From Alphaproteobacteria bacterium (GTDB taxonomy: Bacteria > Pseudomonadota > Alphaproteobacteria > RF32 > CAG-239): a stretch of 64,000 nucleotides of DNA. The stretch covers positions 20,382-84,381 of the forward strand of contig JAZKXV010000026.1 in the NCBI GenBank assembly GCA_045611785.1, given 5' to 3'. The first letter of the stretch is position 1; every line of letters begins with the position of its first letter. Position numbers and translations under genes: made by a program. Below the pieces are notes generated by a model. That model was given only the letters and a program-made list of their open reading frames with translations, had not been told where the DNA came from and ran no database searches. Positions 8,559 through 28,615 of this stretch are shown piece by piece.

Positions 8559-8747
8559 TATATTGACTACTTGTCGACACCTCTTTGCACATCTTGTAAA
8601 GAGGTGTTTTTTTATGAAAATTCAAATACAAAAAAATGCATTTTTACATTTTATAAAACATGAAATTAAATACAAATAAAAATCTTAATGGTTTATTATC
8701 AAAATACGAATATAATTTCATCATATAAAATTAAATGGAGAAAAATT

Positions 8748-9812
8748 ATGTCACGTGCTGAAGATATTTTTCAAAAACTTATATATTTTGGTGAAGATGC
8801 CATTGATGAGTTTATCTTAACGCTTCAAACAGAAGAATTATTTTTAGATTTTAAACAAGCTGTATCAACCGGAAAAAACTTCAATACTTTACATCGAGAT
8901 GACCGTAAAAACTTAGCTAAAGCAATTTCCGGATTCGGCAATTCTGAAGGCGGAGTTATAGTATGGGGCGTAGAATGTTCTCGAGATCACGAAATCGGTG
9001 ATGTGGCAAAAGCAAAGGTAAAAGTAAAAAACGTACATCGCTTTTTAAGTTGGCTTGAAGGTGCCATTTCAGGCTGCACGATTCCCAGTCACAACAAAGT
9101 TAGAAACCACATAATAAGTTGCGATAAAAATGGTGATGGGTTTATTGCAACATATATTCCAAAATCTGAAATAACTCCTTTAATGAGCACCCTAGGCGGG
9201 TCAATATATATTCGTTCAGGATCAAATAATGTTCCCGCTCCTTACGCTGTAATTGCCGGCATGTTCGGCAAAAAACCACAACCAAATATTGAGTTATTAT
9301 TACAAGATAAACGCTTAGAAATTTTGCAAAACAGTGAAGAAGATTTACTCTATCCGCACACCATAGATAATCCGCCTGAAAAGTATGTAAAAATCAGTTT
9401 TTCTATTCAAGCGCACAACGAAAGTAATGCTATTGCAAAAGAAATATATTTTTCGTGCACTACAGAAAGTTTAGCCAGCGAATATAATAAAGTCAGATTC
9501 TTAAATTACAATCAAATGGATTCTCTTAGCACAATTGCCGGACACATTAATTTGATTACAAAACCTGACTTACGTTTACCACCAAGAGGCATGATAAAAT
9601 TTGCAAATGTTCAAATAATTTTATCACCATATACCAATGAAGATTTTTGCTTAAATGGTGTTATTGGTGCAGAAAATGCTGCACCAAAAGATTTTAGAAT
9701 ATATATACCGAAAAACCAACTTCGTTCGTTTGTTGCAAAAGCGTTAAAAGACGAAGACAACACCGAAATCTTAAGCGCAGAATTTTTCAATAACTTTTTA
9801 ATGAGGTCTTAA
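8748..9812 (+). CDS. AlbA_2 / Schlafen-like domain protein with beta-rich C-terminal domain
   Basis: EELFLDFK...[23 protein letters not shown]; start at MSRAED after ggag. Confidence 0.75.
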
Positions 9813-24839: not shown

Positions 24840-25137
24840 TATCGATTAGTTTACTAATTATATTCTTTATTGCTTACTCTGGTCACAGAATTATCAATAT
24901 GGTTGTTTTTCATTATACCAATCATCTCTATCATAATTGACGAATCAATTCTTCTAACATTGTTTGGTTATATCGTTAAATTTGAAATTCATGATAAAAA
25001 GAATTTAACAAGCATACCATAAGCCTTCAGTTTTTTTATTTGTTTTAAGTAAGTTGGCACATAACAATAGCATTAGCAAATATTAAATGTTCAAAACATA
25101 TCCTCATAACAAGGTAAACTAATAAAGATAAAAAATA

Positions 25138-25254
25138 GAAAACAACAATTTTCCGAAAATTAGACATGAAAATATTTGATTTTTATAATAAAATAGACTA
25201 ACATCTGCCCACTATTAAAAATTATGATGTCTAACTATTTAAATATTATGAATT
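25138..25254 (+). repeat. Cassette leader/promoter module, copy A
   Basis: High identity to 26365-26479 and 27428-27543; TTGATT-17-TAACAT; ctgcccact after the -10 box. Confidence 0.9.
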
Positions 25255-25671
25255 ATGAAAAAGTTTGTTTTTATGCTAATTGCAATGTTTAGTGTTGTGT
25301 TGACAGCTTGTTCAGCATTTGACAGTGACCCGATTGAACCAAAAATCATTGGTACCGGTAATTTGCAATATGAAGCAAAAACTGGTACTTGGTTTGTGGT
25401 TATAGATTCAACTCAATACACTATCACCAGTGTGACTATTCCCGAACACAGTCCTCGTACATTAGGTCATACGCAAGACATTGATCCAGTTGAAGGAATG
25501 TTGGTGACAGTGTTTACTTCAGAGCATATGAGAGGCCTGCAAGCTGTTACTGGTGAGCAGTCAGTTAAGCAGATAGAAGAGTTTTATCATACCAATGATA
25601 CGGGAGTCTTTGTTGTATTTGGAATTTTGTTATTGTGTATTATCGGAATTGCTATTCCATGGAAAAAATAA
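25255..25671 (+). CDS. Lipoprotein with C-terminal TM helix (cassette A cargo)
   Basis: LTAC lipobox; hydrophobic C-terminus. Confidence 0.75.
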   Translation: MKKFVFMLIAMFSVVLTACSAFDSDPIEPKIIGTGNLQYEAKTGTWFVVIDSTQYTITSVTIPEHSPRTLGHTQDIDPVEGMLVTVFTSEHMRGLQAVTGEQSVKQIEEFYHTNDTGVFVVFGILLLCIIGIAIPWKK

Positions 25672-26038: not shown

Positions 26039-26137
26039 ACCCCTCACAATTTTATTATTGTGAGGGGTTTCCATTATCTAAAATATTATACTTAAAAAAC
26101 CACCCGAAAGGGTGGTTTTATTTGGTCGGATTGACTA
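26039..26137. repeat. Cassette end module: two hairpins plus 15-bp copy of the tRNA-Pro 3' end
   Basis: acccctcacaa/ttgtgaggggt hairpin, aaaaccaccc-gaaa-gggtggtttt hairpin, tggtcggattgacta at 26123-26137; near-identical to 28109-28208. Confidence 0.92.
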
Positions 26138-26227
26138 CCCCTAAATTAGAAAAAAAATACCATATTTTAAACAATAGAAATTTTTTATTCTTTTTCAGAG
26201 TGTTATGAGAGAGTGGTCGAACCTTCT

Positions 26228-26479
26228 CATCCATACTGGTGAGGTTGACTTTTGTTCACCGCCCACTAGGTGTGGTAATAATTTTTTTATTGTTTTTCAA
26301 TGAAATACACTGACCACCAGGTTCTAACTTGACTTTTGTATTTTTTAAGAATGGTAACAAATCAGAAAACAATATTTTCCGAAAATTAGACATAAAAAAT
26401 ATTTGATTTTTATACTAAAATAGATTATCATCTACCCACTATTTGAAATTATGATGTCTAACTGTTAAATTTATGTATT
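26228..26479 (+). repeat. 252-bp extended leader module, copy B
   Basis: Colinear with 27292-27543; includes TTGATT-17-TATCAT promoter. Confidence 0.9.
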
Positions 26480-27106
26480 ATGAAAAAACTTATTATTATT
26501 GCCGTAACACTATTTATGGCAACAAATGTGTTCGCACAAGAGATTGTTGAAGTCACTAACGTAGAATGGAAACGTTTCTCAACCAGTAGGTACTATACTG
26601 GACGCTACTTGGATTTTCACACGAGCCGTGTATATTTTTCCGATGGAAGTTGTATTTATTACAACAATATCCGTAACGATGAAAAATGGCAAGGTTGGTG
26701 GAATGGAGATGCATATAATCCACAAAAAGTCAGCTTCCCAGTTACTTTAGGTAGTAACATTATAGGTCAAAAGTTTCAAAAGAGATACAACAGCTATACC
26801 CGTGTTAGCTTGCAAAAGGTCGGTACCTACACTATCAAAAAAGTATCAGTGCACGATGTAAATTCCGAGTTTACTGCATCAATGAAGGCTGATTTTAGTT
26901 ATAGAAGCTTTCTCTATCGCAGAGCAAGCGGTTCTGCATCAGGTTCTGCTAAGGGTGGTACAAGAACAATTGTCAACATTTTCTTTGAAAATGGCAAAAA
27001 GGCAACCATTGAAGCTTCAGAAGATCCTATTTGGCTAGATGCCGAACCTGGAATGCAAGTAGAACATTATCGAATTGGCGATAAAAACTTCTATAATCTT
27101 CTCTAA
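26480..27106 (+). CDS. Secreted hypothetical protein (cassette B cargo)
   Basis: Signal peptide ending VFA-Q; beta-rich. Confidence 0.75.
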   Translation: MKKLIIIAVTLFMATNVFAQEIVEVTNVEWKRFSTSRYYTGRYLDFHTSRVYFSDGSCIYYNNIRNDEKWQGWWNGDAYNPQKVSFPVTLGSNIIGQKFQKRYNSYTRVSLQKVGTYTIKKVSVHDVNSEFTASMKADFSYRSFLYRRASGSASGSAKGGTRTIVNIFFENGKKATIEASEDPIWLDAEPGMQVEHYRIGDKNFYNLL

Positions 27107-27110
27107 TAAA

Positions 27111-27167
27111 AACTAATTACCCCTCACAATTTTTATTGTTGTGAGGGGTTTTCTTTATCTAAAATAT
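27111..27167. repeat. Cassette terminator module, 57 bp identical to 28101-28157
   Basis: Direct sequence identity. Confidence 0.92.
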
Positions 27168-27291
27168 CACTTTCATTTTTTTAAATGCTTCACCCAAACA
27201 CCCGAGCATGTTAACAATGCAATTTGACAACTTGGTTGTCAAATCTTTGTAATTCAAAGTGTTACGCGTATTATTGTTTTATTGGAGTTCG

Positions 27292-27543
27292 CATCCACAC
27301 TGGTGAGGTTAACACTTGTTCACTGCCCACTTGTTTTGTAAATTTTTTTTGTTGTTTTTCAATGAAATACACTGACCACTAGGTTCTAACTTGACTTTTG
27401 TATTTTTCCAAGCATTGGCGTGACGTGGAAAACAATGATTTTCCAAAAATTAGACGTAAAACCATTTGATTTTTATAATCAAATAGATTATCATCTGCCC
27501 ACTAATAAAAATTATGATGTTAACTATTTAAATATTATGAATT
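27292..27543 (+). repeat. 252-bp extended leader module, copy C
   Basis: Colinear with 26228-26479. Confidence 0.9.
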
Positions 27544-27765
27544 ATGAAGAAAATTATCGGTTTTATTGAAGCTCCTTTTGAGGATTTTATTATTCCTTTA
27601 ACAATTGTTATTATAGGCGTTGTTCTTTTTATTGTTATTTATAATAAGGAAAATAAACGTGTTAATAAATACAGAAAAGACGTTCAACAAAAAATTGTTA
27701 ACGATGAATTTGCCAAAAAAATTGCTGACAAGTATAAAAGCAATGACAATGATGTAATAGAATAA
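27544..27765 (+). CDS. Small single-TM protein (cassette C cargo)
   Basis: Starts at the same position after the leader module as cargo A and B; one TM helix. Confidence 0.65.
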   Translation: MKKIIGFIEAPFEDFIIPLTIVIIGVVLFIVIYNKENKRVNKYRKDVQQKIVNDEFAKKIADKYKSNDNDVIE

Positions 27766-27801
27766 ACAAAAAAAGTAAATAACCGTTAAAAACTTTGTGT
27801 T

Positions 27802-28095
27802 ATGAAAGTAAAAGTAATTACAGGACAACTTGCGTGTCAACCAGTGGTATTATCAAATGAAAGTCAGGCTCTCGTGCTAATAGTTGTAAAAAATAATGAG
27901 GGATATAGAGAAGCGCATAGAAACTCACGTGCATCTTGTTTAAACAAGTCTTTGTCGTGGAATTATGCAAATACCATATTTTCTCATATCGCTACATCTT
28001 CTATAGGCGAAACTGTTGAGATAAAAATCTCTGACGATAATGGCGAAATCCTTGATTTTAAAAACATAACTCGTCAAAACGCTATGTGTAAGTAA
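27802..28095 (+). CDS. Hypothetical 97-aa protein, paralog of 25734-26027
   Basis: Same taaaaactttRtgttATG start context; shared IATSSIGET and FKN.TR. Confidence 0.8.
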   Translation: MKVKVITGQLACQPVVLSNESQALVLIVVKNNEGYREAHRNSRASCLNKSLSWNYANTIFSHIATSSIGETVEIKISDDNGEILDFKNITRQNAMCK

Positions 28096-28193
28096 AATTT
28101 AACTAATTACCCCTCACAATTTTTATTGTTGTGAGGGGTTTTCTTTATCTAAAATATTATACTTAAAAAACCACCCGAAAGGGTGGTTTTATT

Positions 28194-28325
28194 TGGTCGG
28201 ATTGACTAGATTATTCCGCTTTGCTACATGCTTTGCACTCATCGGCTTCGCCGACCGGCGTCTTAACATCCGCCTTTCGTTTGATGTACGAACTAGCTTT
28301 TTCGCTAGTTCGAACCTAGACCCGA
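28194..28325. repeat. 132-bp palindromic tRNA-Pro-derived element, copy 1
   Basis: Begins with 19 bp of the tRNA 3' end, internal hairpins, ends with an inverted tRNA-like arm. Confidence 0.85.
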
Positions 28326-28370
28326 AAATCAAATAACAAAAAAGCACCACAAGGGTGCTCTTTTGTTATT

Positions 28371-28502
28371 TGGTCGGATTGACTAGATTGGCTTCGCTAC
28401 ATGCTCGGCACTCATCGGCTTTCAGCCGACCGGCGTTCTTACGCCCGCCTTTCGCTTGAAGTGCAAACTAGCTTCTTCGCTAGTTCGAACCTAGACCGAC
28501 CA
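28371..28502. repeat. 132-bp palindromic tRNA-Pro-derived element, copy 2
   Basis: tggtcggattgactagatt ... ttcgaacctagaccgacca; colinear with copy 1. Confidence 0.85.
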
Positions 28503-28538
28503 TACAAAAAGGGGCGCTCTAAAGCACCCCTTTTTTGT

Positions 28539-28615
28539 TGGTCGGATTGACTAGATTCGAACTAGCGACCTCTTCGACCCGAACGAAGCGTTCTACCAGG
28601 CTGAACTACAATCCG
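28539..28615 (-). tRNA. tRNA-Pro (CGG)
   Basis: Cloverleaf cggattg...caatccg-acca, anticodon loop ttCGGgt, TTCGAAT T-loop, encoded CCA. Confidence 0.97.

Follow-up and report, generated by a model that had tools for sequence, protein, structure and literature searches.

Within the window, by which we mean the whole 64-kb stretch of DNA that was analysed, an intact tRNA-Pro(CGG) gene is followed on its own strand by two short units, W2 and W1, which are accompanied by three terminator hairpins (Table 1). [quoted passage not shown] Exactly three copies of this block occur in the window (28194-28212, 28371-28389, and 28539-28557), where shuffled sequences let none be expected by chance, and the additional copies lie downstream of the tRNA, i.e., leftward on the plus strand. 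The copies are spaced by 177 and 168 bp. An earlier reading of the locus from the sequence only had described two 132-bp elements built from copies of the tRNA-Pro 3' arm with these same periods, and both statements were borne out. As for an element integrated at a tRNA 3' end, the units lie between direct repeats of the tRNA end, and the tRNA at the edge of the array is intact. A unit measures ~130 bp, or 168-177 bp together with its own terminator. W1 and W2 share 82% identity and have a GC content of 49 and 55%, respectively, compared to 33% for the window, and both are more stably folded than their shuffled counterparts (z -2.7 to -4.0). There are no ORFs inside W1 or W2, and no Pfam-detectable recombinase is encoded in the 64-kb window.

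Table 1. Features of the tRNA-Pro locus (window coordinates) and family members at other loci.
Feature	Position	Strand	Description
tRNA-Pro(CGG), target gene	28539..28615	-	Intact, CCA encoded; ARAGORN; Rfam tRNA model 62.3 bits
Direct-repeat copy 3	28539..28557	-	tRNA positions 58-76 (AATCTAGTCAATCCGACCA), within the working tRNA
Terminator 3	28506..28536	-	Brought in with W2; from sequence; inverted repeats I2, I22
Unit W2, newest, nearest the tRNA	28371..28502	-	132 bp; model R1 match 28408-28487, 88.5 bits
Parts of W2	28371..28502	-	Direct repeat 28371-28389; core ~28390-28463; Hp 28464-28487; inverted tRNA-like arm 28477-28502
Core hairpin H1 of W2 and W1	28415..28429; 28242..28254	-	tcggctttcagccga in W2, tcggcttcgccga in W1; family-wide compensatory changes
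Core hairpin H2 of W2 and W1	28432..28449; 28257..28274	-	GGCG-N10-CGCC
Terminator 2, of W1	28338..28367	-	Same as the tRNA-adjacent terminator in one-unit strains and L088
Unit W1, older	28194..28325	-	132 bp; model R1 match 28235-28312, 82.8 bits
Parts of W1	28194..28325	-	Direct repeat 28194-28212; core ~28213-28288; Hp 28289-28312; decayed inverted arm 28302-28325
Terminator 1	28167..28190	-	Probably the native tRNA-Pro terminator; abuts the tRNA at the empty site of L086/L089; inverted repeat I20
Partial fourth copy of tRNA 3' end	26123..26137	-	15 nt; far edge of the 2.07-kb strain-specific segment
L011			Rumen 'Alphaproteobacteria' MAG; adjoins tRNA-Pro(CGG); R1 87 bits despite decayed arms
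L051			Two tandem copies; adjoin tRNA-Phe(GAA)
L067			One element; adjoins tRNA-Arg(ACG)
L072			Human faecal scaffold filed 'Bacteriophage sp.'; adjoins tRNA-Met(CAT)
L028			Family element; contig stops 57 nt beyond
L078			Two tandem copies; found by covariance model R1
L077			Weak R1 match, 18.3 bits, E 0.022; same species as L078
L095			Decayed family remnant; found by R1

Read along the tRNA strand, the tRNA is followed by terminator 3 and then by an antisense copy of its own 3' third (TGGTCGG-T-CTAGGTTCGAACTAGC), in which 4-5 nt are deleted relative to the tRNA (CAAT is missing). W2 continues with a loop of 5-6 nt, GAAGAA, with GCTAGTT(C/T)G, which equals tRNA positions 49-57, and with a core of ~75 nt. 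After the core, AATCTAGTCAATCCGACCA (tRNA positions 58-76) leads over to terminator 2, W1 follows in identical order, and terminator 1 ends the array. The core is hence located exactly where the T-loop splits, between tRNA positions 57 and 58. The 49-57 segment is paired with its own antisense copy in a 9-bp hairpin, Hp, which appears on the plus strand as (c/a)aactagc-N6-gctagtt, whereas the core contains the hairpins H1 (UCGGC-loop-GCCGA) and H2 (GGCG-N9-10-CGCC), surrounded by the near-invariant single-stranded motifs CAAGCGAAAGG, GGU, and AUGAG(C/U)GC. The hairpins that had been noted inside the units as REP-like are real and correspond to H1 and Hp of both units; the analogy to REP/RAYT systems found no support, and no RAYT or IS200-like gene was seen. 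An inverted tRNA end had been assigned to both elements. This holds for W2, which carries the complete sequence TCGCTAGTTCGAACCTAGACCGACCA, but not for W1, which ends with ...CCTAGACCCGA and is devoid of the terminal CCGACCA. As likewise had been noted, neighbouring units are separated by different terminator-like hairpins: the three terminators are mutually different, and each unit has its own on its tRNA side. The stem of terminator 3 contains a G.T wobble on the minus strand, which is a C.A mismatch on the plus strand, and the T-runs of the terminators are longer on the minus strand. Thus, the terminators serve the tRNA strand.

Related genomes differ in how this site is occupied. Contigs L001-L006, which stem from other strains of the species and whose nfo protein is identical to that of the window, contain one unit compared to the two of the window, whereby the extra DNA of the window consists of exactly one repeat, W2, and terminator 3, located beside the tRNA. 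The flanks are identical between the window and the one-unit strains (43/43 bp for terminator 2 and 212/212 bp from the tRNA to the nfo start). The element of the one-unit strains occupies the position of W1 and is ~70% identical to it, with the divergence concentrated in the core, designated here as "type B" (e.g., H1 with TGCC/GGCA instead of CGGC/GCCG). Such a diverged core between identical flanks argues for a replacement by a different family member and against drift in place. That the type B core is an inverted type A core was ruled out, since both cores align without inversion. In L086 and L089, which belong to a sister species with 81% nfo identity, the homologue of terminator 1 lies directly against the tRNA, which represents an empty site. 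A further contig with the same nfo protein, L088, carries a 274-bp insert at this otherwise empty site, which has a 24-nt repeat of the tRNA end as its boundary and closes with a decayed tRNA copy plus terminator 2. Overall, the units are polymorphic for presence and absence with precise boundaries (one or two units; L086 and L089 empty; L088 occupied). Neither an excised form nor a recent transposition was observed. The L088 insert (L088:100-397) has W1-like ends and a different, AT-richer interior with an internal terminator-like hairpin, in which the family motifs ATGAGCGC and ACAAGCGAAG lie adjacent to each other in a loop.

Related elements were found behind tRNA-Pro, tRNA-Phe, tRNA-Arg, and tRNA-Met genes in metagenome contigs from gut and rumen (Table 1). 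Five of these loci (L011, L051, L067, L072, and L028) were recovered by pattern scans and one BLAST match, and the covariance model R1 was built from the recovered elements. With R1, the elements of the window, of these five loci, and of L078 score 40-88 bits. All family members have the same orientation relative to their tRNA with a terminator in between, and the ~75-nt core with its two hairpins is conserved across them. There are no cargo genes between core and arm in any family locus found, i.e., all are miniature; a core-bearing, gene-carrying relative, from which they could have originated by deletion, did not appear in these pattern-limited scans. The two copies of L051 are near-identical including the terminator and could therefore stem from unequal crossing-over rather than from a second insertion.

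The collection scans were carried out with restrictive patterns. For the genome collection, the pattern included a tRNA-Pro-specific hairpin loop, so that only Pro-type members could be recovered, and it yielded one real and six chance matches. In the metagenome scan, 49 of the 52 loci were chance matches in high-GC genes, and scans of viral contigs with the 19-mer and with the core pattern gave chance matches in GC-rich coding DNA only. BLAST against phage sequences led to a single match on a bacterial-looking scaffold (L072), and two further phage BLAST searches made no additions. This scaffold (MT837473.1, 6.8 kb, filed as 'UNVERIFIED: Bacteriophage sp.') carries tRNA-Met next to a family element, and its appearance is that of a piece of bacterial chromosome, not of a phage. 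An S41 peptidase gene was also used as a synteny anchor. In most relatives, neither a tRNA nor an element is located nearby; L078 was later found with two elements. In the P0103 species, the family element is absent and the gene order is different. When the same species was compared between two samples (L077:5840-6038 and L078:3940-4237), the left part of the element was common to both, followed by complete divergence, with L077 continuing into another element-like sequence; an N-run is also present there. Polymorphism and assembly breaks are features of these element loci, and a number of nfo contigs (L007-L010, L092) likewise stop at or near the tRNA.

The arms of the elements follow the tRNA beside which they lie. 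When the right arm was compared with all five tRNAs, the local tRNA was the best match in 7/7 elements from 5 tRNA loci. The distal 19-nt arm is identical to the local tRNA at 19/19 positions in the window and in L072 and at 14/19 in L011, and it is cut to 6 nt in L051. At each locus, Hp consists of the 5' half of the local tRNA's T-stem plus the start of the T-loop, and the opposite hairpin strand compensates (GCTAGTTCG in the window, GCTGGTTTG in L011, GTGAGTTC in L067, and GTTGGTTCGAGT in L072). The remaining arm is a variably decayed local tRNA 3' end, usually with CCA directly before the terminator. That the arms change with the neighbouring tRNA requires mobility. At the same time, the core is better conserved than the arms, as is seen for L011. 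A typical MITE shows the opposite, and this suggests that the core does more than serve mobility. Three of the five element-adjacent tRNAs have a non-Watson-Crick pair in the T-stem (U51.C63 in L011:163-239, A52.C62 in L067:2093-2169, and U50.U64 in L072:424-500). Such mismatches would fit a 3' half supplied by the element, but the displaced copies pair no better.

We consider it probable that W1 and W2 belong to an uncatalogued family of non-autonomous miniature integrative elements, which insert at the tRNA 3' end and are moved in trans. Insertion would take place at the junction between the mid-T-loop and the 3' end, keep the tRNA intact, and leave a direct repeat of 19-24 nt. Hereby, the unit would supply a replacement 3' end (tRNA positions 58-76) and a terminator, and the original positions 58-76 would be displaced beyond the unit. 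Since the replacement 3' end and the terminator are brought along, the tRNA would survive and the site would be regenerated for the next insertion; since the target is regenerated with the direct repeat, repeated insertions would stack, with the newest one beside the tRNA. A site-specific recombinase would move the elements in trans, and the core might act as a cis-acting scaffold or represent cargo, single-stranded on the tRNA-sense strand. A non-autonomous, tRNA-targeting miniature element that regenerates its site had also been proposed by the sequence-only reading, and the proposal gains support from the family, the insertion polymorphism, the lack of ORFs in the units, and the lack of a recombinase in the window. 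That reading had named two findings that would speak against it, namely elements unique to this locus or an already described repeat family. Instead, the core occurs beside four tRNA species with locally matching arms. Rfam 15 covariance models returned, at or above the gathering thresholds, only tRNA matches in the window and seven related loci, the core was found neither in IMG/VR viral contigs nor in PLSDB plasmids and among phage records only on the one mislabelled bacterial scaffold, and no description of the element family was found in the full-text literature.

The structure of the core was examined in a model-based alignment of 14 elements with a hand-specified structure, from which covariation was counted. 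In this alignment, 86% of the cells pair, and both-sided changes occur in 10 of the 21 pairs, covering 22 cells, a level that was reached by 0/500 shuffles; slid controls gave 1-5 such cells. L078, for instance, swaps H1 to AAGCC/GGCTT and H2 to GGTACAC/GTGTACC or GGCA/TGCC. The compensation in Hp could also be explained by inverted duplication of the local tRNA, but not that in H1 and H2. RNAalifold on a plain MAFFT alignment recovered H2 only. Several further structures were considered for the core and rejected. A closing helix is not conserved, as the pairing register differs per member. GAUGAG, GAAA, and GUC are present as in a hammerhead ribozyme, but helix III does not close and there is no Rfam match. 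T-box, tmRNA, Y-RNA-like, and retron RNAs gave no Rfam match either, and no RT or Ro gene is present. An anticodon-arm mimic was suggested by the Phe-like loop UUGAAAA of L051; the other loci do not follow, so that this is a coincidence.

The wobble positions distinguish the two strands. In total, the tRNA-sense strand shows 12 G.T cells against 6 A.C cells, and within Hp the ratio is 8 on the tRNA-sense strand to 0 on the other, which goes back to roughly five to seven separate changes. In all elements, folding of the tRNA-sense strand is also more favourable by 2-13 kcal/mol; according to shuffles, base composition accounts for much of this asymmetry, and the strand assignment is thus based on the wobble positions and not on the MFE. 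We regard this as moderate evidence for a role of the tRNA-sense strand in single-stranded form, either as RNA or as ssDNA of the lagging-strand template. By GC skew, the minus strand is G-rich at the locus and would therefore be the lagging-strand template.

If the single-stranded form is RNA, it might be that the units are host RNA genes, i.e., that transcription from the tRNA promoter reads through into them and yields a small structured RNA of the tRNA strand, with a tRNA-like CCA end, whereby the copy number would change by duplication and the arms would serve processing or stability. The sequence-only reading had further proposed that read-through RNA could pair with the tRNA or be cut by tRNA-processing enzymes. 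The covarying helices, the wobble pairs favouring the tRNA-sense strand, the core that outlasts its arms in L011, the high GC content of the units in a 33% GC genome, and the constant orientation to the tRNA in all loci would agree with such an RNA. However, no promoter for the units is apparent, and same-strand terminators lie before and after each unit, which together argues against an independent RNA gene. Moreover, unit number and type vary among strains with identical flanks, the site lacks an insertion in a sister species, the arms differ with the tRNA beside them, and no Rfam family matches. We therefore regard host RNA genes as quite improbable.

If the single-stranded form is DNA, the mobile form of the element could be a small circle or hairpin of ssDNA, with the arms folded into a mimic of the tRNA 3' third or with the antisense arm acting as a guide, and with the core branching off at the cleavage point. 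Such mechanisms have precedents: the folded attP of the CTX phage mimics dif, and IS200/IS605 elements pair a guide with their target. The inverted target-like arms, which are joined via the terminator palindrome (I2), would be in line with this, as would the position of the core exactly at 57/58 of the split T-arm, the wobble asymmetry towards one strand, which is G-rich and would be the lagging-strand template, and the match of the arms to the local tRNA. The T-loop also holds GTTC, the target tetranucleotide of the IS91 family (PMC13181058). On the other hand, HUH, Y1, or Xer-type genes were not seen in the surroundings of any locus, H1 and H2 are unlike each other, in contrast to the two end hairpins of IS200/IS605, the folding asymmetry is partly explained by base composition, and a circle junction was not observed. 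A single-stranded DNA route is thus an unlikely explanation. The same holds for a more specific idea, which we put forward tentatively: the conserved ~75-nt core would be a single-stranded scaffold (DNA or RNA) that is bound by the enzyme, and the arms would be a rewritable guide to, or mimic of, the local tRNA target. A core that is better conserved than the arms and one inverted target copy per unit fit this model. With as little confidence, its logic could be regarded as analogous, not homologous, to IS200/IS605 guides, the folded attP of CTX, and IS110 bridge RNAs.

tRNA 3' ends are classic landing sites for genomic islands, and to our knowledge their occupants described so far are gene-carrying islands or the decayed remains of such islands. 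Within this clade, the 3' end of tRNA-Pro serves as a general hot spot of integration. A second sister species, with an nfo identity of 83%, encodes a large serine recombinase of 506 aa with Resolvase and Recombinase domains (L080:781-2301). Its gene ends within the tRNA-Pro 3' end, the stop codon being the TGA of ...TGGTCGGATTGA. It is part of an island of ~18 kb (L095:445-18610), which sits at the T-loop-to-CCA junction used by the units and carries genes for an SNF2 helicase, an N6/N4 methyltransferase, RhuM, DUF3768, HTH proteins, and a 199-aa tyrosine-integrase fragment. The far end of the island shows a native-type terminator and a decayed 19-nt repeat (13/19), whose inner boundary is the same, and an old family remnant lies just beyond. 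The serine-recombinase island and the small units have no common sequence beyond the tRNA repeat, and there is no core at either end of the island. The 3' end of the recombinase gene contains the terminator of the tRNA. The C-terminal coding region (L080:2200-2225) contains TTCGAAC-TTTTT-GCTAG, which resembles Hp (CGAACTAGC-TTTTTC-GCTAG) and could be due to chance or be a relic of an earlier unit.

A different type of insertion at this hot spot is found in the window itself. The region 26138-28193 constitutes a 2.07-kb strain-specific segment, which is absent from L001, L002, and L006 and contains three unannotatable ORFs of 208, 73, and 97 aa. Its border is formed by a duplication of ~400 bp (73% identity), which comprises the 97-aa ORF and two terminators and whose end is the 15-nt partial copy of the tRNA 3' end. 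The segment looks like a further, different insertion at the tRNA-Pro hot spot.

Given such a hot spot, it could also be that the units are decay remnants (cis-mobilizable elements, CIMEs), i.e., that large integrative islands (prophages, ICEs, or IMEs) have lost their interior, that the core is the former att-arm region, and that the remnants were stacked by accretion. The tRNA-Pro site does hold the 18-kb recombinase island, the 2.07-kb segment with its 15-nt repeat, and the 274-bp insert of L088, and that decayed elements accrete at tRNA genes has been well documented (PMC5704250; PMC3146451). However, an identical, compact, cargo-free layout is found at five tRNA loci in several hosts, on which independent decay would not converge. 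In addition, the one large island examined is without the core at either end, the core hairpins covary, and the core is absent from the IMG/VR, phage, and plasmid collections save for the one mislabelled scaffold. Decay is thus an unlikely origin of the units.

For miniature elements moved in trans, the best candidate enzyme would be a large serine recombinase of the CcrB/DsiB type, since one of these occupies exactly this junction in the sister species. A RAYT/IS200-like gene or a tyrosine recombinase had been named earlier as the partner to look for. No RAYT or IS200-like gene was seen; at the site in relatives, only the large serine recombinase and the short tyrosine-integrase fragment are present. 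The event kind, site-specific insertion at the tRNA T-loop/3' end with tandem accretion, is already known. The DsiB islands at ssrA in Dehalococcoides show mid-T-loop insertion, a 20-bp repeat, and a recombinase gene overlapping attL (PMC3146451), and for ICEs and IMEs it is known that non-autonomous elements accrete beside tRNA genes (PMC5704250). In the Dehalococcoides islands (DsiB, CcrB-like) and in SCCmec-type islands, the recombinase gene runs into attL (PMC3146451), as it does in L080 and L095 at tRNA-Pro. The units differ from these islands in being 168-177 bp in size and gene-free and in having a conserved structured core and an inverted target copy. With CIMEs and accreted ICEs and IMEs, they share that they are non-autonomous, bounded by att repeats, located at a tRNA 3' end, and stacked in tandem (PMC5704250), but CIMEs are decayed islands of heterogeneous content, whereas the units are uniform, tiny, structured, and distributed over several tRNAs and hosts.

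The element itself appears to be new, being minimal and structured with a conserved interior and target-matched ends. Like bacterial MITEs, REP/BIME sequences, and IS200/IS605-derived palindromes, the units are small, non-coding, hairpin-rich, and multi-copy with inverted ends. Yet, MITEs have constant ends and a varying interior, whereas the units have a constant interior and ends that copy the local target: no terminal inverted repeats are common to all copies, and in place of a short target-site duplication of fixed length there is a repeat of 19-24 nt of the tRNA. In contrast to all three groups, the units are specific for tRNA 3' ends and have no known partner transposase. With respect to REP/RAYT and IS200/IS605, there is no Y1 HUH gene in the window or neighbouring loci, and H1 differs from H2. 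The folded attP of the CTX phage, an Xer-dependent IMEX, resembles the units in its two inverted target-like sequences and in the regeneration of the target, which makes arrays possible; the target of the units, however, is a tRNA gene and not dif, they comprise 170 nt and not a phage genome, and an ssDNA or Xer step would be hypothetical. Members of the IS91 family need no inverted terminal repeats, have subterminal palindromes and minimal ends of ~170 bp, which suffice for transposition, and target the tetranucleotide GTTC (PMC13181058). A mini-element of this family would be recognized by oriIS and terIS ends, a flanking GTTC/CTTG, and the lack of a target duplication. GTTC is present in the T-loop, and GTTCG abuts the core, but the units have a long repeat; compared by description, IS91 elements leave no such repeat and make no copy of their target. 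An HUH transposase was not seen near the units. An integron attC site consists of R''/R' boxes (RYYYAAC and GTTRRRY) at the ends of an imperfect palindrome of 57-141 nt and belongs to a cassette array adjoining intI. On visual comparison, GTCGAAC and GTTCGAC agree with these boxes at 6/7 positions each, but the Hp palindrome has 24 nt only, and there is no intI or attI. An inverted arm and a hairpin such as Hp are unneeded in the standard models of tyrosine or serine integrases.

What makes the element distinctive is its uniformity at ~170 bp, with only a structured core and a terminator, and with ends that follow the tRNA across at least four tRNA species in several uncultured gut and rumen bacteria. 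If mobilised in trans, it would be a minimal substrate for learning how recombinases recognize T-loop-specific sites, and should its arms in fact determine the target, it would amount to an insertion system that is compact and programmable by sequence. In metagenomes, the units cause assembly breaks at tRNA genes as well as strain-level variation, and they add tRNA-like fragments that are able to mislead annotation.

PHROGs and Pfam searches with the small ORFs neighbouring the units were uninformative. In the variable region, 26224-26480, 27288-27544, and 25120-25255 are mutually 83-86% identical and lie upstream of small unknown ORFs that start at 26480, 27544, and 25255, respectively; judged by their sequence, they would represent a repeated leader or promoter module. 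The GC skew is near zero across ~8-28 kb of the window, compared to ~-0.2 in the flanks, and an ORF with a Schlafen/AlbA_2 domain (8688-9812) is located at the edge of this change. The segment upstream of tRNA-Pro may be a larger acquired or rearranged block.
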